Part shown: piece after piece, positions 8,618-35,448 of the stretch | How positions within the stretch are numbered: the stretch's first letter is position 1 | Layout: each line of letters starts with the position of its first letter | Origin: Oscillospiraceae bacterium | GTDB lineage: Bacteria; Bacillota; Clostridia; Oscillospirales; Oscillospiraceae | Assembly: GCA_020860205.1 (NCBI GenBank) | Contig: JAJBUU010000024.1 | Coordinates: forward strand, 18,646 to 82,645 | DNA: 64,000 nucleotides | Reading direction: 5' to 3' | The notes under the pieces: generated by a model | Database searches by the model: none | What the model saw: only the letters and a program-made list of their open reading frames with translations | What the model was told of the DNA's origin: nothing | Position numbers and translations under genes: made by a program

Positions 8618-11017
8618 ATGTACCAGGTTCTAAAGCGCGACGGGACCGTCGTGGAATTTGAAATCAATAAAATCAGCGCTGCCATCACAAAGGCGTTCGT
8701 GGCGCTGGAAAAGGAATATCACCCCAGCGTGATCGACATGATTGCGCTGCGCGTCACTGCGGACTTTGAGAGCAAGGTCAAAAACGGCCTGATCTCCGTG
8801 GAGGACATTCAGGACAGTGCGGAAAAGGTGCTGTCCGAAACGGGCTATGCCGATGTCAGCAAGGCCTATATCCTCTACCGCAAGCAGCGGGAAAAGGTGC
8901 GCAATGTCAACTCCGCGCTCCTGAACTACAAGGATTTGGTGGACAACTATCTGCAAATCAATGACTGGCGCGTCAAGGAAAACTCCACCGTGACCTATTC
9001 CGTCGGCGGACTGATCCTCAGCAACTCCGGCGCAATCACCGCGAACTATTGGCTGAGCGAAATCTACGACGCGGAGGTCGCGGAGGCGCACCGCAGCGCG
9101 GCCATTCATCTGCATGACCTGAGTATGCTGACCGGCTACTGCGCGGGATGGAGCCTGAAGCAGCTCATTCAGGAAGGACTGGGCGGCATCCCCGGAAAAA
9201 TCACTTCCTCGCCCGCCAGCCATCTTTCCACGCTCTGCAACCAGATGGTGAATTTTCTTGGCATTATGCAAAACGAGTGGGCGGGCGCGCAGGCGTTCTC
9301 CTCCTTTGACACCTATCTTGCCCCCTTTGTCCGGGTGGATGACCTCAGCCAGAAGGAGGTCAAGCAGTGCATCCAGTCCTTCATCTATGGCGTCAACACG
9401 CCGTCCCGCTGGGGAACACAGGCGCCGTTCAGCAACATCACGCTGGACTGGACCTGCCCGAAGGATCTGGCGGAGCAGCCCGCCATCGTTGGCGGCCGGG
9501 AGATGGACTTTACCTATGGCGACTGTAAGCGCGAAATGGATATGGTGAACCGTGCGTTCATCGAGATCATGATCGAGGGCGACGCGAACGGCCGCGGCTT
9601 CCAGTATCCCATCCCGACCTATTCCATCACGCGCGACTTTGACTGGAGCGAAACGGAGAACAACCGGCTGCTCTTTGAGATGACAGCCAAATATGGCACG
9701 CCCTATTTTTCCAACTATATCAACTCCGACATGGAGCCGAGCGACGTACGCAGTATGTGCTGCCGTCTGCGGCTGGATCTGCGCGAGCTGCGCAAAAAAA
9801 GCGGCGGCTTCTTTGGCTCCGGCGAATCCACCGGCTCCATCGGCGTTGTCACCATCAACCTGCCGCGCATTGCCTATCTTGCCACGGACGAGCAGGACTT
9901 CTATCAGCGGCTTGACCGCCTGATGGACATCGCGGCACGCAGCCTGAAAACCAAGCGCACGGTCGTCACCAAGCTGCTGAACGCGGGACTTTATCCCTAT
10001 ACCAAACGCTATCTCGGCACATTTGATAACCATTTTTCCACCATCGGTCTGGTCGGCATGAACGAGGCCGGACTGAACGCGAAGTGGCTCCGCGCCGGAC
10101 TAACCGATCTGCGCACACAGCAGTTTGCAAAGGACGTGCTGAACCATATGCGGGAGCGCCTGAGCGACTATCAGGAGCAGTACGGCGACCTCTACAATCT
10201 GGAGGCCACCCCCGCCGAGTCCACGGCCTATCGTTTTGCCAGGCACGACAAGGCGGAGTTTCCGGACATCATCACCGCAAACGAGAACGGTACCCCGTAC
10301 TACACCAATTCCTCCCATCTGCCCGTGGGCTATACGGAGGATGTGTTCTCCGCGCTGGACATTCAGGACGAGCTTCAGACGCTTTATACCTCCGGCACCG
10401 TGTTTCACGCCTTTTTGGGCGAAAAGCTGCCGGACTGGAAGGCGGCGGCCAATCTGGTGCGCAAGATCGCGGAAAACTACAAGCTCCCGTATTACACGAT
10501 GAGTCCGACCTATTCCATCTGCGCCGACCACGGTTATCTGAGCGGCGAGCAGCACACCTGCCCCCACTGTGGCCGCCCTGCGGAAATTTACAGCCGCATC
10601 ACCGGTTACTATCGGCCGGTGCAGAACTGGAACGACGGCAAGGCGCAGGAATTTAAGGATCGCGTCGTTTATGACATCGGACGCTCCCATCTGACCCACA
10701 CCGGACCGCTGAATATGCCAGCCCGGACGGACGGCGCGCAGACAGACGCAGCGGAGCCTGCGGCGGAGGCGGAGCCGATGCTGTTCGCCACGCGCACCTG
10801 CCCGAACTGCCGCCAGGCAGAGAAGCTGCTGGAGGAGAGCGGCGTCGCTTACCAAAAGATCCTGGTGGAGGAAAACCCGGATATGGCACGCCGCTACGAT
10901 GTGCGCCAGGCGCCGACCCTCGTCTTTGACAATGGAGACGGTACGCAGCCCGCAAAATCCGTCGGACTGACCGGTGTGCGGAGCTTCATCGCCGCCCACA
11001 GCGCCGCGCGTGTATAA
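8618..11017 (+). CDS. nrdD: Anaerobic (class III) ribonucleoside-triphosphate reductase fused to a C-terminal thioredoxin/glutaredoxin-fold domain
   Basis: 799 aa. ATP-cone N-terminus (VLKRDGTVVEFEINKI), SMCCRLRL loop, Zn-ribbon CPHCG, glycyl-radical motif RITGYYRPVQNWN. An Ala/Glu linker is followed by residues 721-799, MLFATRTCPNCRQAEKLL...APTLVF (CPxC redoxin fold). Confidence 0.9.
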   Translation: MYQVLKRDGTVVEFEINKISAAITKAFVALEKEYHPSVIDMIALRVTADFESKVKNGLISVEDIQDSAEKVLSETGYADVSKAYILYRKQREKVRNVNSALLNYKDLVDNYLQINDWRVKENSTVTYSVGGLILSNSGAITANYWLSEIYDAEVAEAHRSAAIHLHDLSMLTGYCAGWSLKQLIQEGLGGIPGKITSSPASHLSTLCNQMVNFLGIMQNEWAGAQAFSSFDTYLAPFVRVDDLSQKEVKQCIQSFIYGVNTPSRWGTQAPFSNITLDWTCPKDLAEQPAIVGGREMDFTYGDCKREMDMVNRAFIEIMIEGDANGRGFQYPIPTYSITRDFDWSETENNRLLFEMTAKYGTPYFSNYINSDMEPSDVRSMCCRLRLDLRELRKKSGGFFGSGESTGSIGVVTINLPRIAYLATDEQDFYQRLDRLMDIAARSLKTKRTVVTKLLNAGLYPYTKRYLGTFDNHFSTIGLVGMNEAGLNAKWLRAGLTDLRTQQFAKDVLNHMRERLSDYQEQYGDLYNLEATPAESTAYRFARHDKAEFPDIITANENGTPYYTNSSHLPVGYTEDVFSALDIQDELQTLYTSGTVFHAFLGEKLPDWKAAANLVRKIAENYKLPYYTMSPTYSICADHGYLSGEQHTCPHCGRPAEIYSRITGYYRPVQNWNDGKAQEFKDRVVYDIGRSHLTHTGPLNMPARTDGAQTDAAEPAAEAEPMLFATRTCPNCRQAEKLLEESGVAYQKILVEENPDMARRYDVRQAPTLVFDNGDGTQPAKSVGLTGVRSFIAAHSAARV

Positions 11018-25454: not shown

Positions 25455-25735
25455 GCAATTCGGCTTTGATGAGCAGGAGTAGTCGCGTTTTCCGGCGCGC
25501 AGAGAGGACACGGGTGGTGCAAGTGTCCGCCGGGACGGAATGAAGGTCGGCTCGGAGCCGCATCGGAATCTGCGCAGACAGGGGCTTTCCCGCTGCCGGT
25601 TCCGGCGTTCGCCCGCGTTAAGGGTATGAGCGTCCCTGCGCGTTTCGCGGCGGGGAAATTCAGGTGGTACCGCGCAAAAGAAGGTCGTTTTGCGTCCTGA
25701 AGCAGTCAAAGCTGACGCTTCAGGGCGCTTTTTTT
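25455..25735 (+). promoter_or_regulatory. T-box riboswitch (Val specifier) controlling valS
   Basis: Stem I elements (AGTA, AGAGA, GGTGGTGCAAG). Candidate specifier GUC at 25546-25548 in gaaGGUCg. T-box core AAATTCAGGTGGTACCGCG (25656-25674). Terminator 25692-25735 (12-bp stem plus TTTTTTT). Confidence 0.85.
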
Positions 25736-25762: not shown

Positions 25763-28393
25763 ATGAAAGAATTGCCAAAAGTCTATGAACCGCAGCGCGT
25801 GGAGCGCAGCATTTATGAGATGTGGGAGCAGGGCGGCTATTTCCACGCCAAAATCGACCCGGATAAGAAGCCGTTTTCCATCGTGATGCCGCCGCCGAAC
25901 GTGACCGGTCAGCTCCACATGGGTCACGCGCTGGACTGCACCTTGCAGGACATCCTGACCCGCTATAAACGGATGCAGGGCTATGCCGCACTCTGGCTGC
26001 CTGGCACCGACCATGCGGGCATTGCCACACAGATCAAGGTAGAGGAGGACCTGCGCGTCAACGAGGGGCTGACCCGCTACGATCTTGGCCGGGACGAGTT
26101 CCTGGCACGTGTCTGGAAGTGGAAGGACAAATACGGCAACCGCATCGTGGAGCAGCAGAAGCAGATGGGCGCCTCCTGCGACTGGGAACGCAGCCGTTTT
26201 ACGATGGACGAGGTCTGTGCCCGTGCGGTGCGGGAAACATTCTGCAATCTGTATGAAAAGGGCCTGATTTATAAGGGCAGCCGCATCATCAACTGGTGTC
26301 CCCACTGCCTGACCGCCCTGAGCGACGCAGAGGTGGAATATATAGATAAGCCCGGTCATCTCTGGTATATCCGCTACCCGCTCAGCGACGGCAGCGGCGA
26401 GATCACCGTTGCCACCACGCGCCCGGAGACGATGCTGGGCGATACCGGTGTTGCCGTAAACCCGGAGGATACGCGCTTCAGTCACCTGATCGGCAGGACC
26501 TGCATCCTTCCCCTTGTCGGACGGGAGATCCCCATCGTCGGGGACGCCTATTGCGAAATCGGCTTTGGTACCGGCGCGGTGAAGATGACCCCCGCCCATG
26601 ACCCCAACGACTTTGAGGTCGGGCAGCGACACGGGCTGGAGGTGATCCGCGTCATCGCGGACGACGGCAGCATCAACGAAAACGGCGGAAAGTATGAAGG
26701 TCTGGATCGCTACGAGTGCCGCCGGCAGATCGTGGCCGATTTGGATGCGGCGGGTTACCTGGTCAAGATCGAGGATTACAGCCACAACGTCGGCACCTGC
26801 TACCGCTGCCACAACGACGTGGAGCCGCTGATCTCCGCACAATGGTTCGTGAAGATGGAGCCGCTGGCAAAGGAAGCGATCCGGGTCGTGAAGGACGGCA
26901 CTGTAAAATTCGTGCCGGAGCGCTTTTCCAAAACCTATATCAACTGGATGGAAAACGTCCATGACTGGTGCATCTCGCGTCAGCTCTGGTGGGGACATCA
27001 GATCCCCGCATGGTACTGCGACGACTGCGGTCACATCAATGTCAGCCGCGAGGACCCGACGGTCTGCGAAAAATGTGGCAGCACGCACCTGACGCGGGAG
27101 GAGGATGTGCTGGACACATGGTTCTCCTCTGCGCTCTGGCCGTTTTCCACGATGGGCTGGCCAGAGAAAACGCCGGAGCTGGATTACTGGTATCCGACCA
27201 GCGTGATGGTCACGGGCTATGACATCATCTTTTTCTGGGTGGCGCGCATGATTTTTTCCGGTATGGAGCAGATGCAGGAACACCCGTTCGATACCGTGTT
27301 TATCCACGGCCTTGTGCGCGACGCGCAGGGACGCAAGATGAGCAAGAGTCTCGGCAACGGCATAGACCCGTTGGAGATGGTGGAAAAATACGGCGCGGAC
27401 GCGCTGCGCTTCAACCTGATCACCGGCAACTCGCCCGGAAACGATATGCGCTTTTATGTGGAAAAGTGCGAGGCAATGCGCAATTTCTGCAACAAGATAT
27501 GGAATGCCAGCCGCTTTGTCCTGATGAATCTGCAAATTGAGGATAACGCGCTGCCGGATACGCTGGAACTGCCTGACCGCTGGATACTCAGCACGCTGAA
27601 CGATACCGTGCGCGAGGTCTGCGAGAACATGGATCGCTTCGAGCTGGGCGTAGCCGCGTCCAAGCTCTATGACTTCATCTGGGACAGCTTCTGCGACTGG
27701 TATATCGAGCTGACAAAGCCGCGCCTGAACGGGACGGATGCGGCGGCTTCGGAGTGCGCGCAGCGGGTACTGCTCTATGTGCTGACGGAAATCCTGAAGC
27801 TGCTTCACCCGTTTATGCCCTTCATCACGGAGGAAATCTGGCAGGCCATTCCGCATGAGGGAGATGCGCTGATCGTTGCGGACTATCCGGTTTACCGTCC
27901 GGAGCTCTGCTTTGCGGAGGATGCGGCGAGCTTCAGCCTTGTGATGGAGGCGATCCGCGCCGTGCGCGCGCGCCGTGCGGAGATGAATGTGCCGCCATCC
28001 CGCAAAAGCCACCTGATCATCGTTGCGGAAGCGGCGCAGCGCGCAGCATTTGAACAGGGGCGGGACTACATCTGCAAGCTGGCCTATGCCGCAGAGCTGA
28101 CCGTTGCCGCCGAACCGCCGGAGGATGCGGCGGGCATGGTTTCCGTTGTCACCGGAAGCGCGCGGATGTTTATGCCGATGGCCGACCTCGTGGATATCGC
28201 GGCGGAGCGCGCCCGGCTGCAAAAGAACCTTGCCAATGCGGAAAAGCAGCTTGCCGCGCAGAACGCGAAGCTCTCCAATGAGAAATTCGTTTCCCGTGCG
28301 CCGGAGGCCGTCGTCAACACGGAGCGGGAGAAAAAGGCTTCGCTGGAGGCACTGATCGAAAATCTGAACGAGAGCCTGCGAAATCTGGGATAA
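25763..28393 (+). CDS. valS: Valine--tRNA ligase
   Basis: Start moved to [10 protein letters not shown] (RBS AAAGGAG); the track start at 25664 lies inside the T-box. [13 protein letters not shown] (HIGH), KMSKS, C-terminal coiled coil. Confidence 0.95.
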
Positions 28394-28450: not shown

Positions 28451-29131
28451 TTAAAGCGTGGAGGAAGCGAGCCGGGCGAGGATACGGCTTTGCGCCGCAA
28501 GATGCAGCAGCCCCTCGATTTGCAGCAGATTTGCCAGCCAGAGCAGCGCGTAGAGCGCAAGCGCGCATTCCGCGATCCCAAACGCCGCGCCGCCCAGACG
28601 ATCCGCAAAATGAATGACCGGAAGGCGGGTTGTCAGTCCAAGCGCGTTCTTGAGCAGCGTGAGCAGGAACAGCAGCAGCAAAAAGGACAGGAGAAAGAGC
28701 CCTGCGCGTACCAGCGTCCGTGTGGCCTGCAACAGCATCTCCGCTGCGGCGGATTCCACAATTTCCTGCGCGGTGGTCGTTGGGGATCCCATTGCGCGGG
28801 CGATGAAATCCTGTGTCTCCATGCCAAGATTCCGCATAAAGCGCAGCAGCGCGTCCGGGAACGACTGCTCCACAAGACCCGTCATGACCGCCGCGTCCGT
28901 TGTCTGCAATGCGGCTGCTTCCGGTGCAGCGGGCGAAATATGCGCCTGCACCCACGGATAGACCAGCGCCGTCACCGTGTCCGCCAGCGCGCGGGAGAGC
29001 AGATAAGCGCCGAGCATGGCGGCGAGGAACACCAGCAGCGACATCAGGCTCCGGTAAAGCCCCCTGCGTCCTTTGACGAGCGCGCAGATGCAAAATATGG
29101 CGGCAACCGCCGCATCCACGGCATGATCCAT
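28451..29131 (-). CDS. cvpA: CvpA-family membrane protein
   Basis: Start at MDHAVDAAVAAIF (RBS AAAGGAG). Four TM helices typical of the colicin V production protein family. Confidence 0.75.
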   Translation of the reverse strand: MDHAVDAAVAAIFCICALVKGRRGLYRSLMSLLVFLAAMLGAYLLSRALADTVTALVYPWVQAHISPAAPEAAALQTTDAAVMTGLVEQSFPDALLRFMRNLGMETQDFIARAMGSPTTTAQEIVESAAAEMLLQATRTLVRAGLFLLSFLLLLFLLTLLKNALGLTTRLPVIHFADRLGGAAFGIAECALALYALLWLANLLQIEGLLHLAAQSRILARLASSTL

Positions 29132-29226
29132 ATGCGCGTTTCTCCTTTCTGCCTGCTTTTCCTTATACAATACCGCTTTCTCTGCGGTCTTTCAAGCAAA
29201 ACTTTTTGTTTTGCAGGGAAAAAAGC

Positions 29227-29255
29227 TTGACTTCATTGCCGGAACGTGTTAAATT
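29227..29255 (+). promoter_or_regulatory. Sigma-A promoter for the aromatic amino acid operon leader
   Basis: TTGACT (29227-29232), 17 nt spacer, TG-extended TAAATT (29250-29255). Confidence 0.5.
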
Positions 29256-29301
29256 GAAAGTATCTTTTGATGTTTTATCGACAGAGAGGAGCCGGACTGC
29301 C

Positions 29302-29412
29302 ATGCACTGCGCCGCCGTCACTGGTTCTTATGGTTATTATTATTTTACACCGGCCCGCTATTTTGGGGGCTTTTATTATGGTGCTTCAAAATCGCAAGCT
29401 GTCCGGGTGTAA
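29302..29412 (+). CDS. Candidate Tyr/Phe-rich leader peptide (36 aa)
   Basis: GAGGAG (29286-29291) lies 10 nt before the ATG. MHCAAVTGSYGYYYFTPARYFGGFYYGASKSQAVRV has 7 Tyr and 3 Phe, all encoded by TAT/TTT. Followed by a terminator and the Phe/Tyr biosynthesis genes. Confidence 0.5.
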   Translation: MHCAAVTGSYGYYYFTPARYFGGFYYGASKSQAVRV

Positions 29413-29439
29413 AATAGTGCTTTTTTGTGGAATGCAAGC

Positions 29440-29471
29440 GGCCCTGTTTTCGGACAGGGTCGTTCTTTTTT
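29440..29471 (+). terminator. Intrinsic terminator inside the 5' leader (attenuator)
   Basis: ggccctgt-tttcgg-acagggtc followed by gttcTTTTTT, 70 nt upstream of the DUF554 start. No upstream same-strand gene needs it. Confidence 0.6.
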
Positions 29472-29541
29472 GTGCTCCGGCGCAAAAATCGCCGCAGATA
29501 CATTCATGCGTAAACTATTATATGAAAAGGGCAGAGAAACT

Positions 29542-30240
29542 ATGAACGGAGTTATTTTCAATACGCTCACCGTGCTGCTTGGCAGCGCCGTGGGACTGCT
29601 GCTGAAGAAAAACATCCCCAGACGTCTGAGCGAGGCCGTGATGATTGCAATCGGGCTTTGTACCCTCTATATCGGTGTGGACGGTGCGCTGGAGGGGAGC
29701 AACACCATCGTTTTGATCGTTTCCCTCGTCTGCGGCACTGCGGTCGGCACCGCGCTGGACATCGACGGACGGCTGAATCGACTGGGACTGCTGGTCGGCG
29801 ATCGCCTGAAGCGCGGCGGCGAGGAGAGCGGCGTTGCGGAAGGGTTCGTGACAGGCAGCCTGCTGTTCTGCATCGGCGCCATGACCATCGTCGGCTGCAT
29901 CAACGCCGGACTGACCGGCGACAATAAGCTGCTTTATACCAAGTCCATCATGGATTTGATTTCCTCCTGTATGCTTGCCGGAACGCTGGGCGTGGGCGTT
30001 ATGTGCGCTGCGGTTTTTGTGCTGCTGTTTCAGGGGCTGCTGGTGCTCTGCGCCGGCCTGCTGCAGGGACTTTTGACTGATACCGCACTGGTTGCGGAAA
30101 TCACCTGCGCAGGCAGCGTGATGATCATTGGACTCGGCCTGAACATACTCGGCATCACAAAGCTCAAGGTCGCGGATATGCTGCCCGCCATCGTACTGGT
30201 GCCGCCGATTTATCTGGCTGCACAGTACCTGCCGGTCTGA
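29542..30240 (+). CDS. DUF554-family membrane protein
   Basis: Start at MNGVIFNTLTVLLGSAVGLLLKK. Polytopic, Gly-rich helices typical of the YdfK/YqgA (DUF554) family. Confidence 0.8.
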   Translation: MNGVIFNTLTVLLGSAVGLLLKKNIPRRLSEAVMIAIGLCTLYIGVDGALEGSNTIVLIVSLVCGTAVGTALDIDGRLNRLGLLVGDRLKRGGEESGVAEGFVTGSLLFCIGAMTIVGCINAGLTGDNKLLYTKSIMDLISSCMLAGTLGVGVMCAAVFVLLFQGLLVLCAGLLQGLLTDTALVAEITCAGSVMIIGLGLNILGITKLKVADMLPAIVLVPPIYLAAQYLPV

Positions 30241-30322
30241 CTGCGGCGGGCACTGCAAGGAAAACAAGGGCGGCGCGTGATCTGGTGAAACGCGGCCTTG
30301 CCCAAGAAAGGAACCCCTGTTT

Positions 30323-31438
30323 ATGAATCTGGAAGAAGCAAGAAATGAAATTCGCGCCGCAGACGCGGAGATGGCTGCACAGTTTTTGCGGCGGATGCAC
30401 GCGGTCAAAGAGGTCGCGGCCTATAAGCGGGAGCACGGCCTGCCCGTGTTTGACAGGGAGCAGGAGGAACGGGTGGTGCATCGGAGTCTGGAATGGATCG
30501 ACGACCCCGAACTGCGCGACTATTTTGTGGAGTTTTTGCAGAACACCATGACCGTTTCCCGCCGCTACCAGCACCGGCTGATGGACGGAATGCGCATCGC
30601 CTACAGCGGCGTGGAAGGCGCGTTTGCCCACATCGCGGCAAAACGCATCTTTCCGGGCGGTACGCCGATGTCTTATCCCTCCTTTGAGGAGGCTTACAAC
30701 GCGGTTTCCTGCGGGGACTGTGACTGCGCGGTGCTGCCGATGGAAAACAGCTATGCCGGCGAGGTCGGGCAGGTGATGGACCTGATGTTCAGCGGAAGCC
30801 TCTCTGTCAACGGCATTTATGACCTGCGCATTTCGCAGAACCTGCTCGGCATACCGGGCGCGGCGCTTTCCGATATTCAGACCGTGGTCAGCCACCCGCA
30901 GGCGCTTGGCCAGTGCCAGCCCTATCTGCGGCGGCACAATCTGACCGAGAAGGAAAGCTCCAATACGGCGCGCGCCGCAAAGCTCGTGATGGAGCGGCAG
31001 GACGTGCATCTGGCCGCCATCGCGAGTGCGGAAACCGCCGCGCTCTATGGACTGCAAATTTTGGACCGTGACATCAACGAGAGCAAATTCAACACCACGC
31101 GCTTTGCGGTGTTCTCCCGTGCGGAGAATGCCAGCCCCGGCCGACGGGATTCCAGCGTGTTCCTGCTGATGTTCACCGTCCGAGAGAACGTAGCGGGCGC
31201 GCTGGCAAAGGCCATCAACGTCATCGGTACATACGGCTTTAATATGCGGGTGCTGCGCTCCCGTCCGCTGCGCACGCTGCCGTGGCAGTATTACTTTTAT
31301 GTGGAAGCGGAGGGGGACGATACCTCCGAAAACGGGCGGCACATGGTGGAGGCGCTCCGACAGGAATGCGTTATGCTGAAGGTCGTTGGACGGTTCCACG
31401 CGGGCGCGCTGGAGGAAGGCAGGGAGGAAACGCCATGA
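30323..31438 (+). CDS. pheA: Bifunctional chorismate mutase / prephenate dehydratase
   Basis: N-terminal CM_2 helix bundle (EIRAADAEMAAQFLRRMHAVKEVAAYK), PDT domain (MRIAYSGVEGAFAH...ENSYAGEV), C-terminal ACT domain. Confidence 0.9.
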   Translation: MNLEEARNEIRAADAEMAAQFLRRMHAVKEVAAYKREHGLPVFDREQEERVVHRSLEWIDDPELRDYFVEFLQNTMTVSRRYQHRLMDGMRIAYSGVEGAFAHIAAKRIFPGGTPMSYPSFEEAYNAVSCGDCDCAVLPMENSYAGEVGQVMDLMFSGSLSVNGIYDLRISQNLLGIPGAALSDIQTVVSHPQALGQCQPYLRRHNLTEKESSNTARAAKLVMERQDVHLAAIASAETAALYGLQILDRDINESKFNTTRFAVFSRAENASPGRRDSSVFLLMFTVRENVAGALAKAINVIGTYGFNMRVLRSRPLRTLPWQYYFYVEAEGDDTSENGRHMVEALRQECVMLKVVGRFHAGALEEGREETP

Positions 31439-32457
31439 TGATACCGGTCAGGCTTGGAGCGGACAGCTATGAGATTTTATTGCAGCGCGGCGGACTGCTC
31501 CGCGCCGGAGAATCCCTGAACCTGAACCGTCGCGTGCTGATCGTAACGGACGACGGCGTGCCGGACTCCTATGCGCAGACGGTTGCGGCACAGTGCAAAA
31601 CGCCGCTGATCCGCGCGGTTCCAGGCGGAGAGGGGAGCAAGTCCATGGAAACGCTGACGGAGCTGCTCTCCGCCATGCTCCGCGCGGGATTTACGCGCGG
31701 GGACTGCGTGGTCGCCGTTGGCGGCGGCGTGGTAGGCGACCTTGCCGGTTTTGCCGCAGCCTGCTATATGCGCGGCGTGGATTTTTACAACATCCCGACC
31801 ACGGTGCTTTCACAGGTGGACTCCTCCATTGGCGGAAAGACCGCCGTGAATCTGGACGGGATCAAGAACATCGTCGGCGCGTTCTATCAGCCAAAGGCAG
31901 TGCTGATCGACATGGACACGCTGGACACCCTTCCGCAAAGGCAGATCTCCGCCGGACTGGCGGAGGCGGTGAAAATGGCGCTTATCTTTGACGCGGCGCT
32001 GTTCGCGCGGATGGAAACGGAGGGGTTTACGCAGGAGAATGCGGAGGCGATCATCGCACGTTCCCTGGAGCTGAAGGCGGCGGTGGTGGAGGCCGACGAG
32101 AAGGAGCAGGGGCTGCGGAAAACGCTGAACTTTGGTCACACAATCGGTCACGGGATCGAGAGCGTGTCCTCCGCGACGCTCTATCATGGCGAGTGCGTTG
32201 CATTGGGAATGCTTCCCATGTGCGCGCCGGATGTGCGCGCGCGACTGGTTCCGGTGCTGCAAAAGCTCTCCCTGCCGCTGCGTTGCGCTGCCGACCCGGA
32301 GCGGGTCTATGCGGCCATGCTGCACGACAAAAAGAGCGCGGAGGGGCGTCTGAGCGTCATCCGCTGCCCGCGACCCGGCGCTTATGAGATGGAATGCGTG
32401 GAACCCGCCGCGCTGCGGGATGGCATCAACATGATTTGCAGGGGGGCAACGGAATGA
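31435..32457 (+). CDS. aroB: 3-dehydroquinate synthase
   Basis: ATGA overlap with the pheA stop. GGGVVGDLAGFAAA, metal-binding HGE/HTIGH motifs. Confidence 0.9.
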   Translation: MMIPVRLGADSYEILLQRGGLLRAGESLNLNRRVLIVTDDGVPDSYAQTVAAQCKTPLIRAVPGGEGSKSMETLTELLSAMLRAGFTRGDCVVAVGGGVVGDLAGFAAACYMRGVDFYNIPTTVLSQVDSSIGGKTAVNLDGIKNIVGAFYQPKAVLIDMDTLDTLPQRQISAGLAEAVKMALIFDAALFARMETEGFTQENAEAIIARSLELKAAVVEADEKEQGLRKTLNFGHTIGHGIESVSSATLYHGECVALGMLPMCAPDVRARLVPVLQKLSLPLRCAADPERVYAAMLHDKKSAEGRLSVIRCPRPGAYEMECVEPAALRDGINMICRGATE

Positions 32458-33554
32458 AAAACAGCTTTGGAACCTCCGTCTGTGTCACGCTGTTTGGCGA
32501 GAGCCACGGCGAGGCCATCGGCGCGGTGCTGGACGGTCTTGCGCCCGGTATCCCGGTGGATACGGACTATATCGCTGCGCAGCTCGCGCTGCGGCGGCCA
32601 TATGGCAGCATTTCCACCGCGCGGCAGGAGCCTGACCGGTTCCAAATCGTCAGCGGAGTATTCGAGGGACGCACCACGGGAACGCCGCTTTGCATCCTGA
32701 TCCCAAATGTGAGCGCCCGCAGCAGGGACTATGCCGCGACGCGCGCGCTGGCGAGGCCGGGTCATGCGGATTATACGGCTTACTGCAAGTACCACGGATT
32801 TGAGGACTATCGCGGCGGCGGACACTTCAGCGGGCGCATCACGGCGGCGCTGACGGCGGTCGGCGCGGTCGCGCTGACCGCGCTGCGCGGAAAGGGTATC
32901 GTAATCGGGACGCACATTGCCCGCTGCGGCGGCGTGGCTGACCGCCCCTTTTCCGACGACATTGCATCGGACATCACGCAGCTTGCTGCACTGCGGTTCG
33001 CCGTGCTGGACGAAGCGCGGGCGGACGAGATGCAGCAGGCCATCGCAGTTGCCGCTGCGGAGGGCGACAGCGTGGGCGGCGAGCTGGAAACAGCGGTTTG
33101 CGGACTGCCGAACGGCGTGGGCGAACCGTGGTTCGATACGCTGGAGGGACTGCTTTCCCACGCGCTGTTTTCCGTTCCCGGCGTAAAGGGCGTAGCCTTT
33201 GGCGACGCGCCGGAGCTGCTGGATGCGCGCGGCAGCGAATATAACGATCCCTTTTATCTGGATGCCGGTACGGTGAAAACCAGAACCAACCACAACGGCG
33301 GCGTCAACGGCGGCATCAGCAACGGAATGCCCCTGCGTTTCCGCTGCGCGGTGAAGCCGACGCCGTCCATCTATAAGCCGCAGCAGACGGTGGACTTTCT
33401 GCATGGCGCGGATGCAGCGCTTCAAATAGAGGGGCGGCACGACCCCGCGATTATTCACCGCGCGCGCGTGGTGGTGGACAGCGTGACCGCGCTGGCGCTG
33501 TGCGACGCGCTTGCCATGCGCTTTGGCACGGATTATCTGGGAGGGCAGCCATGA
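32454..33554 (+). CDS. aroC: Chorismate synthase
   Basis: ATGA overlap with the aroB stop. FGESHG, RPGHAD, GGGHFSGR signature motifs. Confidence 0.95.
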   Translation: MKNSFGTSVCVTLFGESHGEAIGAVLDGLAPGIPVDTDYIAAQLALRRPYGSISTARQEPDRFQIVSGVFEGRTTGTPLCILIPNVSARSRDYAATRALARPGHADYTAYCKYHGFEDYRGGGHFSGRITAALTAVGAVALTALRGKGIVIGTHIARCGGVADRPFSDDIASDITQLAALRFAVLDEARADEMQQAIAVAAAEGDSVGGELETAVCGLPNGVGEPWFDTLEGLLSHALFSVPGVKGVAFGDAPELLDARGSEYNDPFYLDAGTVKTRTNHNGGVNGGISNGMPLRFRCAVKPTPSIYKPQQTVDFLHGADAALQIEGRHDPAIIHRARVVVDSVTALALCDALAMRFGTDYLGGQP

Positions 33555-34795
33555 AATACGGACTTTTGGGCGAACACCTGACGCACAGCTTTTCCGCAGA
33601 GATACACCGGAAGTTGGGACGTTATTCCTATGAGCTGCGGGAGATTTCCCCGGAGGCGTTGCCGGAGTTTTTGACACGGCGGGATTTTTGCGGTCTGAAC
33701 ATCACCATCCCCTACAAGGAAACGGTGATCCCTTATCTGGATGAGATCACGCCGCGCGCCGCGTCCATCGGCGCGGTCAATACGATCGTGAACCGGGACG
33801 GGCGGCTTTGCGGCGACAACACGGACTATGGTGGGATGCAGCTTTTGGTGGAGCGCATGGGGCTTTCCCTCGCGGGAAAAAGGGTGCTGATCGCCGGAAC
33901 CGGCGGCACCAGCAAAACGGCGTTGGCTCTCTGCCATGCGCTTGGCGCGGGAGAAGTATACCGTCTCAGCCGCAGCGGACGGGAGGACGCGATTTCTTAC
34001 GATGCGGCGCGGGAAGCCCATGCGGATGCGGACATCCTGTTCAATACCACGCCCAGCGGAATGTTTCCCAAATCGGATGCGGCGCCGGTCGATCTGGCGG
34101 ACTTCCCGGCGCTCACCGGCGTGGTGGACGTGATTTATAACCCGCTGACGACCCGTCTGGTGCGTCAGGCCCGCGCGCGGGGAATTCCAGCGGAAAACGG
34201 ACTATATATGCTCGTGGCGCAGGCTGTGCTGGCCGCAGAGCAGTTCACTGGCGCGGACTTTGGCGCGGAGACTGTGGAACGGATTTACGCTTCGCTTACG
34301 TTTGAAAAGCGCAGCATCGTCCTGATCGGGATGCCCGGCAGCGGCAAGTCCACGCTGGGGGAGATATTGGCGCGGCGGCTGAACCGCCCGCTTCTGGATA
34401 CGGACGCGGAGGTCGTTGCCCGCGCCGGAGCGCCCGTTACGGAGATTTTCGCCCGGCAGGGCGAGGCGGCGTTCCGCGCGCTGGAAACGGAAACGGTTCG
34501 GGCGCTGGGTGAGCGCGGCGGCGCGGTGATTGCAACAGGCGGCGGCGTACCGCTGCGGCCGGAGAACGTGGATGCGCTGCGCGCCAACGGTACGCTGGTA
34601 TTTTTAGACCGCGCGCTGGAAACGCTGCTGCCGACGGACGACCGCCCGCTGGCGAACAGCGCGGAGAAGATACGCGCGCTTTATACGCAGCGGCGCCCCA
34701 TTTACCAGGCCGCTGCGGACGTTACAGTGGAGGTTTCAGGTACGCCGGAGGAAACTGCGGAACGGATTTTATCGGCGCTCTCCGCCGGAGAATAG
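33551..34795 (+). CDS. aroE: Fused shikimate dehydrogenase / shikimate kinase
   Basis: ATGA overlap with the aroC stop. N-terminal AroE (GLNITIPYKE, NTDYGG, GTGGTSK); C-terminal AroK (IGMPGSGKSTLG, ATGGG). Confidence 0.9.
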   Translation: MKYGLLGEHLTHSFSAEIHRKLGRYSYELREISPEALPEFLTRRDFCGLNITIPYKETVIPYLDEITPRAASIGAVNTIVNRDGRLCGDNTDYGGMQLLVERMGLSLAGKRVLIAGTGGTSKTALALCHALGAGEVYRLSRSGREDAISYDAAREAHADADILFNTTPSGMFPKSDAAPVDLADFPALTGVVDVIYNPLTTRLVRQARARGIPAENGLYMLVAQAVLAAEQFTGADFGAETVERIYASLTFEKRSIVLIGMPGSGKSTLGEILARRLNRPLLDTDAEVVARAGAPVTEIFARQGEAAFRALETETVRALGERGGAVIATGGGVPLRPENVDALRANGTLVFLDRALETLLPTDDRPLANSAEKIRALYTQRRPIYQAAADVTVEVSGTPEETAERILSALSAGE

Positions 34796-34867
34796 GATAT
34801 TTCAAAGCCGCTGTTGCGCGCACGGGCGGACAGGCTCCGTCCCGGCGCACGGCAAGCGCTTTATCAG

Positions 34868-34951
34868 ATGCATCACCGCGCAAATGCGCCTGCGGCGGCC
34901 TGACGGCAATTTCCCGGCAGCCGCGCCTGTCGATTTATGCGGCGAAGGCTC
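34868..34951. repeat. REP-like palindromic element inside the aro operon
   Basis: gatgcatcaccgcgcaaatgcgcctgcggcggcctgacggc...ccgcgcctgtcgatttatgcggcgaaggctc. The 5' and 3' arms are imperfectly complementary. Very similar to 52178-52338. Confidence 0.6.
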
Positions 34952-35010
34952 AAAATAAAATCCGCCCGCCGCCGAACCGGCGGAACGGGGCGGCAATCAG
35001 GAGGATTTCC

Positions 35011-35448
35011 ATGCAGCTACTTGTCATAAACGGTCCCAACATCAATATGCTGGGCATCCGGGAGCCGGATATTTACGGCGCGGAGAATTATCAGACGCTT
35101 TGCCGCCGCGTGGAGGACTACGCAAAGGCCGCAGGCGTCGGCGTGGAGATTTACCAGTCCAATCACGAGGGCGATCTGGTGGACAAAATACAGGCGGCCT
35201 ATGGCCACGTGGACGGGATCGTTATCAATCCCGGCGCTTATACCCATACGAGCGTCGCGCTGCTCGATGCGGTGAAGGCCGTGTCTATCCCAACGGTGGA
35301 GGTGCATATTTCCGATGTGGCCGCGCGGGAGGACTTCCGGCAGATCAGCTATATCCGTGCCGCCTGTGTCGCCACCATCGCCGGACGCGGCATACAGGGT
35401 TATCTGGACGCGATGCAGCTTTTGATGGAACAGGGGGCAGGGAAATGA
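35011..35448 (+). CDS. aroQ: Type II 3-dehydroquinate dehydratase
   Basis: MQLLVINGPNINMLGIREPDIYG, HISD motif, 145 aa. Confidence 0.95.
   Translation: MQLLVINGPNINMLGIREPDIYGAENYQTLCRRVEDYAKAAGVGVEIYQSNHEGDLVDKIQAAYGHVDGIVINPGAYTHTSVALLDAVKAVSIPTVEVHISDVAAREDFRQISYIRAACVATIAGRGIQGYLDAMQLLMEQGAGK

Follow-up and report, generated by a model that had tools for sequence, protein, structure and literature searches.

The closest described counterpart of the element studied here is the pheL-pheA system of Escherichia coli (Phe_leader, RF01859), in which a short open reading frame (ORF) rich in codons for the end product lies directly before the chorismate mutase/prephenate dehydratase gene, alternative 1:2, 2:3 and 3:4 pairings accompany an intrinsic terminator, and the stop codon is placed where a terminating ribosome blocks the antiterminator. 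We find a similar arrangement at positions 29227-29471 of the window, by which we mean the whole 64,000-nucleotide (nt) stretch analysed (Oscillospiraceae bacterium, contig JAJBUU010000024.1, positions 18,646 to 82,645 of the forward strand), in the leader of an aromatic amino acid operon that runs from a DUF554 gene through pheA to aroF. The leader also follows the four-segment logic of E. coli trpL, in which a very stable terminator faces an antiterminator of moderate stability; in trp, pairings 1:2 and 2:3 are worth about −11 kcal/mol and 3:4 about −20 kcal/mol, and hairpin 1:2 may also serve as a pause signal. With the T-box (RF00230) it would share the sensing of tRNA charging and the toggling of a terminator and an antiterminator before Firmicute amino acid genes.

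A Lactococcus leu/phe leader exists as an Rfam family. Reports of pheL leaders concern gamma-proteobacteria, the sole candidates outside that group being Bacteroides and Desulfobacterium (PMC3082878). Among Firmicutes, attenuators with His leader peptides have been described in the Bacillus cereus group, Peptostreptococcaceae and Erysipelotrichales (PMC2965389, PMC9413887) and ones with Leu or branched-chain amino acid (BCAA) leader peptides in Staphylococcus aureus and Listeria (PMC5794164, PMC5864092), so that Firmicutes are not confined to T-boxes and TRAP and the mechanism is not new there. A sequence-only reading of this locus had proposed a pheL/trpL-type attenuator and set it against the T-box and TRAP control expected of Firmicute aromatic operons. 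There is indeed no T-box in this leader, but attenuators with leader peptides are not foreign to Firmicutes, as the His and BCAA examples show.

The leader is very probably a classical ribosome-mediated transcription attenuator that would make expression of the DUF554-to-aroF operon depend on how much charged tRNA-Tyr and tRNA-Phe is available, judging from its sequence and that of its relatives. The elements of such an attenuator, their conservation and their covariation are all present, and the pheL/trpL-type proposal is supported by the Shine-Dalgarno (SD) sequence, ORF, terminator, helix 1:2 and antiterminator across 18 homologous leaders. The ORF is conserved, a structure that competes with the terminator exists, and no known RNA family matches.

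The leader and its homologs

Because the upstream gene is a divergent cvpA (assigned by Pfam), the operon promoter must fall in the intergenic leader region. We folded 29262-29480, scanned 29130-29600 against Rfam and located promoter and terminator by consensus scan; all features are on the plus strand unless stated otherwise. A promoter-like site, TTGACT-17-TAAATT, occupies 29227-29255 (−35 at 29227-29232, −10 at 29250-29255, the latter extended by a preceding TG) and is the putative promoter, with transcription predicted to start downstream of it at about 29262. The SD sequence GAGGAG (29286-29291) stands 10 nt before the ATG at 29302 of a leader peptide ORF of 36 codons plus TAA (29302-29412, stop at 29410-29412), the product of which is MHCAAVTGSYGYYYFTPARYFGGFYYGASKSQAVRV. 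Seven of the 36 codons specify Tyr (10, 12-14, 20, 25 and 26) and three Phe (15, 21 and 24), each of them TAT or TTT, and they form two regulatory codon clusters at 29329-29346 and 29359-29379. When the leader is shuffled by mononucleotides, 0.45% of the shuffles contain an ATG-initiated ORF with at least 10 Tyr/Phe codons (P = 0.0045). The intrinsic terminator (29437-29471) consists of a 12-pair stem (29437-29448:29453-29464) with a UUCG loop and a CUUUUUU tract at 29465-29471; the stem is followed by CTTTTTTG, and the hairpin alone is predicted at −18 to −23 kcal/mol. The promoter hexamers and their spacing, the SD and ORF with 10 Tyr/Phe residues in codons 10-26, and a terminator (stem 29437-29464 plus U-run) in a leader without an upstream same-strand gene had all been called in the sequence-only reading and are borne out by these scans.

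To collect homologous leaders we scanned metagenome contigs anchored on PheA, which gave 80 loci with PheA 52-65% identical to that of the window. About 30 of the 80 carry, 80-500 nt upstream of pheA, a small ORF with at least five aromatics per 10-residue window followed by a terminator. The leader family itself comprises 18 homologous members, the window's included (nhmmer E values from 1e-30 to 1e-5; covariance model R1 E values from 1e-27 to 1e-12), 16 of which are complete, and all lie 80-400 nt upstream of pheA or, in the window, of DUF554-pheA. A peptide profile searched against 5.8 billion proteins returned only 13 matches, three of them yielding new loci, because gene callers rarely call such small ORFs.

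Translation signals are present throughout the family. All 16 complete members have an SD sequence and a start codon (ATG; GTG once), the SD in most of them resembling (G)GAAAGGAG; L093 and L111 have a weaker one. In the same 16 the Tyr/Phe-rich ORF is kept in the same frame, with a length of 26-42 residues and 6-12 Tyr, Phe or Trp, and the stop codon is offset from the antiterminator core by −9 to +17 nt; the alignment of orthologs thus shows the conserved frame, together with the compensatory stem changes described below. One member, L171, lies directly before pheA-aroB-aroC-aroEK-aroQ-aroA (3805-8921), which is the operon of the window minus DUF554. Several members have only some 20-40 nt between the end of the terminator and pheA, so there is no space for a separate promoter. 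Within the species, 10 conspecific contigs have one variable site among the 245 positions of 29227-29471 and nine among 162 flanking intergenic bases (Fisher P = 0.0014), and the sole single-nucleotide polymorphism (SNP) in this promoter-to-terminator stretch is a Cys3Arg change in the variable N-terminus of the leader peptide.

At least three further classes of Tyr/Phe-rich ORF plus terminator, unrelated in sequence, are found 80-460 nt upstream of pheA (L096, L101, L103, L117, L119, L122 and L123; L136, L142, L165 and L166; L127, L129, L133 and L164). Their peptides include MFNTAFYYYYFTQAMDTCVVQELD, ..YFYFYFNNAMDL.. and ..TTYWFYFYFY.., each with its own terminator. Since these unrelated classes share a Tyr/Phe-rich ORF and a terminator, the logic of the attenuator appears to have been selected repeatedly.

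Two complete leaders stand in tandem upstream of pheA at L091 (161-540) and L092 (2501-2880), each with an SD sequence, a Tyr/Phe-rich ORF and a terminator; the ORFs encode MNIAASTCANTMMNSYYFTFVRYFAGWFFGAKK and MKSADIIRSAKFYYFT[LP]ACYFAGFYWYALLDKMSG. This arrangement is analogous to that of tandem riboswitches or T-boxes.

The leader is also overlapped by doubtful reading frames and gene calls. A 92-residue TTG-initiated ORF in another frame (29267-29545) covers the whole leader, has no SD sequence and would have Ile in place of Tyr; most likely it is an artefact that arises from the high U content here. Two entries in public data are probable mis-annotations: a 46-residue minus-strand gene call that lies over the promoter (window 29163-29303; L081 2622-2762), and the NCBI 'hypothetical protein LUE95_05885, partial' (P0123), in which the leader ORF is extended upstream through the promoter (29200-29412). 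Recognising leader ORFs that are sporadically mis-annotated as hypothetical proteins would improve the annotation of metagenome-assembled genomes (MAGs).

Mutually exclusive RNA helices

In the minimum free energy (MFE) structure of 29262-29480, a 14-bp helix 1:2 (29338-29351:29406-29419) encloses a small hairpin and is followed by the terminator. Its 5' strand, segment 1 (29338-29353), would act as an anti-antiterminator and lies within the first Tyr/Phe cluster, spanning codons 13-15 whole and codon 12 partly, and its 3' strand, segment 2 (29403-29419), runs across the stop codon TAA. The complementarity noticed by eye between 29343-29353 and 29403-29414 is therefore real and forms part of this helix. 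The accompanying claim that TAT and TTT are disfavoured in this genome fails, as TAT makes up 66% of Tyr codons and TTT 57% of Phe codons in 11 neighbouring genes. Their exclusive use in the leader ORF is only mildly unusual (P ~ 0.01) and is better explained by RNA pairing, segment 1 being U-rich and its partner, segment 2, A-rich. An in-ORF hairpin, P2 (29352-29371; pairs 29352-29356:29367-29371; GGCCC-GCUAUUUUG-GGGCU), was obtained from the RNAalifold consensus. The U-rich tract directly 3' of it (29371-29379) is the second Tyr/Phe cluster, and we infer that P2 and this tract may form an RNA polymerase pause signal.

We counted covariation on a model-based alignment of the 18 sequences, pooling helix 1:2, P2 and the terminator (25 pairs). 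Of all cells in these helices, 89% are paired, compared with 29-51% when the partners are slid, and 18 of the 25 pairs are altered on both sides. None of 500 shuffles equals any observed measure. The alignment follows the model to which it was fitted, however, and relatedness among the sequences inflates all shuffle and permutation statistics, so that these figures are supportive and not formal probabilities. Taken separately, the terminator has 96.8% of cells paired and compensatory changes in nine of 12 pairs, P2 has 94% of cells paired with compensatory changes as well, and helix 1:2 has 74% of cells paired and double changes in seven of eight pairs. The RNAalifold consensus yields P2 and the terminator, and helix 1:2 is seen in the per-sequence MFE structures of most family members. 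When strands were exchanged among members, the own partners of helix 1:2 paired at −10.0 kcal/mol compared with −6.6 ± 0.64 for permuted ones, and those of the terminator at −19.7 compared with −15.9.

The peptide encoded across these helices has a core common to many members, [YF]FT[FP]xRYFAGF, which invites readings in which the peptide itself is the product under selection. If the ORF encoded a functional aromatic-rich micropeptide with its own terminator, the operon being transcribed independently, such a core would be expected, and gene callers do sometimes annotate the ORF as a hypothetical protein. The 'RYFAG' within the core, however, overlies hairpin P2 (CGC UAU UUU GCG GGC). In L091b an Arg-to-Cys change (CGC>UGC) is offset at the RNA level by a synonymous GCG>GCA change, and in L099 the P2 stem is retained although YF became RN. 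Function at the peptide level is disfavoured because changes in the core track RNA pairing in this way; the conservation of 'RYFAG' appears to be explained by constraint on the RNA and not on the peptide, which argues against a peptide function. The N- and C-termini and the length of the peptide are unconstrained, the sole conspecific SNP in the stretch is nonsynonymous, and the element is always linked to pheA. Independent transcription, in turn, is difficult to reconcile with the lack of any plus-strand promoter-like site from the terminator to DUF554 and with relatives in which the terminator abuts the pheA SD sequence. We thus regard a micropeptide as extremely unlikely.

Conservation of the core over at least 10 residues might instead reflect arrest of the nascent peptide in the ribosome tunnel, in the style of TnaC, SecM or Erm leaders, with free Tyr/Phe or another signal being sensed in place of tRNA charging, and the geometry of the attenuator would relay any stall at the position of the core. 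Yet the core lies on base-paired RNA and changes together with it, L099, L114 and L093 are without the core but keep the RNA architecture, and the peptides of the other leader classes differ widely and have only Tyr/Phe runs in common. Arrest on abundant Tyr or Phe would also have the wrong polarity for a biosynthetic operon, and such a mechanism is in our view very improbable here. A related idea is that the conserved core (F-T-F/P-x-R-Y-F-A/G-G-F) and the P2/U-tract form a programmed arrest or pause module that adds a second input to tRNA-Tyr/Phe charging. Such a dual-input attenuator seems improbable; if real, it would be mechanistically distinct and the first dedicated Tyr-sensing attenuator, with DUF554 as a transporter of aromatic amino acids or precursors within the regulon.

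A classical attenuator requires an antiterminator, which the sequence-only reading could not identify by eye, and we located one by folding truncated transcripts: 29399-29406 (CUGUCCGG) pairs with 29450-29457 (UCGGACAG). The 5' strand, segment 2', covers codons 33-35 and overlaps segment 2 at 29403-29406, and the 3' strand consists of the terminator loop and the upper end of the terminator 3' arm. Inside the antiterminator hairpin (29412-29449), further helices (29412-29417:29444-29449, 29419-29421:29440-29442 and 29424-29428:29434-29438) engage the terminator 5' arm and so sequester it. Helix 1:2, the antiterminator and the terminator are mutually exclusive, with overlaps at 29403-29406 and at the terminator loop and upper 3' arm. 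The antiterminator emerges in transcripts that include only the first 7 nt of the terminator 3' arm, with or without a ribosome mask over codons 12-21, and the truncated transcript then has a free energy of −21.4 kcal/mol, comparable to the −18 to −23 of the terminator hairpin alone.

A comparable nested architecture is found in about 13 of 15 members. The own antiterminator duplexes pair at −10.9 kcal/mol compared with −8.65 ± 0.51 for permuted partners (none of 20000 permutations as low) and −6.0 ± 0.5 for shuffled strands. Compensatory variants occur in L099, L100, L107, L111, L114, L171 and L172. A U:A pair is replaced by C:G in L099, L100, L130 and L098 and a G:C pair by U:A in L114, the strands read GCUCGG:CUGAGC in L172 and ACUCGG:CUGAGU in L171, and those of L111 read UCCGAUA:UAUCGGA.

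From these elements we propose the following sequence of events, assuming that a ribosome covers about 12-15 nt in each direction from the decoding site. Transcription would begin at about 29262, and a ribosome would load at the GAGGAG and the ATG at 29302 and translate the 36-codon leader, with P2 and the U-tract probably serving as a pause site that synchronises polymerase with ribosome. With ample Tyr and Phe, the ribosome would reach the stop codon at 29410-29412, cover 29399-29419 and block the antiterminator, so that the terminator would fold and transcription would end at about 29471. If the leader were not translated, helix 1:2 would sequester the CCGG of the antiterminator strand and termination would likewise follow. 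When Tyr- or Phe-tRNA is scarce, the ribosome would stall in cluster 1 or early in cluster 2 (codons 10-21) and occupy segment 1, which would leave 29399-29419 (segments 2' and 2) free for the antiterminator. The antiterminator would start to pair at the terminator loop while the 3' arm has yet to emerge and then zip into that arm, giving read-through into the operon.

Several results weigh against this model. When the full-length leader is folded, the terminator persists whichever ribosome mask is applied, including masks over the regulatory codons. Constrained MFE folding at full length was accordingly unsuccessful as a way of finding the antiterminator, and the comparison of masked and unmasked folds suggested in the sequence-only reading left the terminator unchanged at full length, the competing structure appearing in shortened transcripts. 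Because the terminator always wins in full-length thermodynamic folds, the model leans on co-transcriptional kinetics. The window's antiterminator fold taken alone is no better than shuffles (z = +0.44). Counted in fixed columns, antiterminator covariation fails to reach significance because of register shifts (45 of 500 shuffles equal or exceed the observed value), and we therefore replaced this count with the per-sequence duplex and partner-swap test. Covariation of the inner antiterminator helices is not significant either (P = 0.06), although they are present in most MFE folds, and we do not claim the inner helix to the terminator 5' arm as a conserved feature. In textbook attenuators the antiterminator strand pairs with the terminator 5' arm, whereas the conserved strand here is matched to the loop and 3' arm. 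If the ribosome stalled as late as the final regulatory codons (25-26), it would already have passed segment 1. Finally, a 215-nt gap precedes aroQ, and the distal genes may or may not depend on the leader.

The downstream operon and its surroundings

The genes downstream of the leader are those named in the sequence-only reading, and their assignments are supported by Pfam. The operon presumed to be regulated (29542-38588) starts with DUF554 (29542-30240) and pheA, which encodes fused chorismate mutase and prephenate dehydratase domains (CM+PDT; 30323-31438). It continues with aroB (31435-32457), aroC (32454-33554), an aroE-aroK fusion ending at 34795, aroQ (35011-35448), aroA ending at 36662, tyrA (36646-37497) and aroF (37557-38588), as placed by Pfam and gene calls. 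A consensus scan of the plus strand from the terminator to the end of aroF (38588) found no promoter-like site, and the whole operon from DUF554 to aroF is presumably co-transcribed. The non-coding gap between aroE-aroK and aroQ (34796-35010) is GC-rich and contains inverted repeats and a minus-strand terminator-like hairpin (34984-34965); no leader-like ORF was found in it.

DUF554 lies between leader and pheA only in the window's species, a lineage-specific placement. The window's DUF554 protein is found unchanged on contigs of several Oscillospiraceae MAGs, and its next-closest relatives are at most 74% identical. In 80 GTDB loci with DUF554 of up to 69% identity, none has pheA or cvpA beside the gene or a Tyr/Phe ORF upstream, and no known RNA element lies upstream of DUF554 on its strand in those 80 other genomes. 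Without pheA/cvpA synteny in these loci, DUF554 was dropped as an anchor for orthologous leaders in favour of PheA. DUF554 is a membrane protein family that is still uncharacterised, and its position in a putative Tyr/Phe-starvation regulon hints at transport of aromatic amino acids or their precursors. In an Acutalibacteraceae MAG, a Gut-1 RNA (RF01706, 59.5 bits) lies immediately downstream of a DUF554 homologue (L007, 2300-2375).

The sole T-box in the window (RF00230, 97.7 bits; 25457-25702) lies directly upstream of valS (about 25763-28393). The same genome thus pairs a T-box before valS with a leader peptide before the aromatic operon, 4 kb apart.

Comparison with known systems

Rfam 15 contains no credible family for the leader: over 29130-29600 at E ≤ 10 we obtained only chance-level small RNA matches on the terminator, with no riboswitch or T-box and no match to Phe_leader, the leu/phe leader or other catalogued amino acid leaders. 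The absence of a T-box core noted from the letters alone is therefore upheld by a search that does recover the valS T-box. No match at the gathering score was found in 20 related loci, scanned members of the unrelated leader classes included, and no T-box was found upstream of pheA in loci without the leader.

These scans bear on a further explanation, in which a trans-acting factor (uncharged tRNA, a TRAP- or PyrR-like protein, or a small ligand) flips terminator and antiterminator and the ORF is incidental to a U-rich RNA. The conserved helices, one of them a hairpin inside the ORF, would suit a factor-binding RNA, and aromatic genes of Firmicutes are commonly regulated by T-boxes or TRAP (PMC2494555). 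The lack of Rfam matches, both in the window and in the related loci, speaks against it, as does the absence of conserved unpaired loops typical of a ligand pocket. Nor would an incidental ORF account for an SD sequence, start codon, frame, aromatic enrichment and stop position conserved in all complete members, and the unrelated leader classes have only a Tyr/Phe-rich ORF and a terminator in common, which is not predicted for a factor-binding RNA. We judge control by such a factor to be very unlikely, and ribosome-mediated attenuation, with a presumed response to tRNA charging, remains the reading we prefer.

We found no Tyr/Phe leader for Clostridial pheA/aro operons in the literature searched, though the attenuator survey of Lopatovskaya et al. 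2010 may describe one. With 18 members, a covariance model and no Rfam 15 match, the leaders add at least one well-supported family of cis-regulatory RNA, which many Clostridia of gut and rumen have conserved. Uncultured, abundant gut and rumen Clostridia would run the whole shikimate/Phe/Tyr pathway through translation-coupled attenuation and not through the expected T-box or TRAP. In E. coli, tyrA and aroF are under TyrR, and we know of no Tyr-sensing attenuator in model organisms; in the present leader Tyr would be a major regulatory residue. The leader is also a potential Tyr/Phe-starvation-responsive part for the engineering of anaerobes.

The leader has no sequence or structure homology to pheL. 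Its codons are a mixture of Tyr and Phe (7+3) where pheL has a Phe run, it would govern a whole aromatic supraoperon including tyrA and aroF, it has an extra conserved hairpin inside the ORF, the partners of its conserved antiterminator strand are the terminator loop and 3' arm, and its host belongs to the Clostridia. It is likewise not homologous to trpL, from which it differs in the amino acids sensed and in a much longer helix 1:2 (14 bp). With the His and BCAA leaders of Firmicutes it shares mechanism and phylum, whereas amino acids, operons and RNA sequences differ. The T-box, by contrast, binds uncharged tRNA and needs no translation, and the leader is without a specifier loop, a T-box sequence or a match to the T-box model. 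As far as sequence comparison can tell, then, the mechanism is ordinary and the RNA family uncatalogued; what is unusual are the details, namely the predicted sensing of mixed Tyr and Phe, the in-ORF hairpin, the putative loop-invading antiterminator, the tandem copies and the predicted control of a whole supraoperon.

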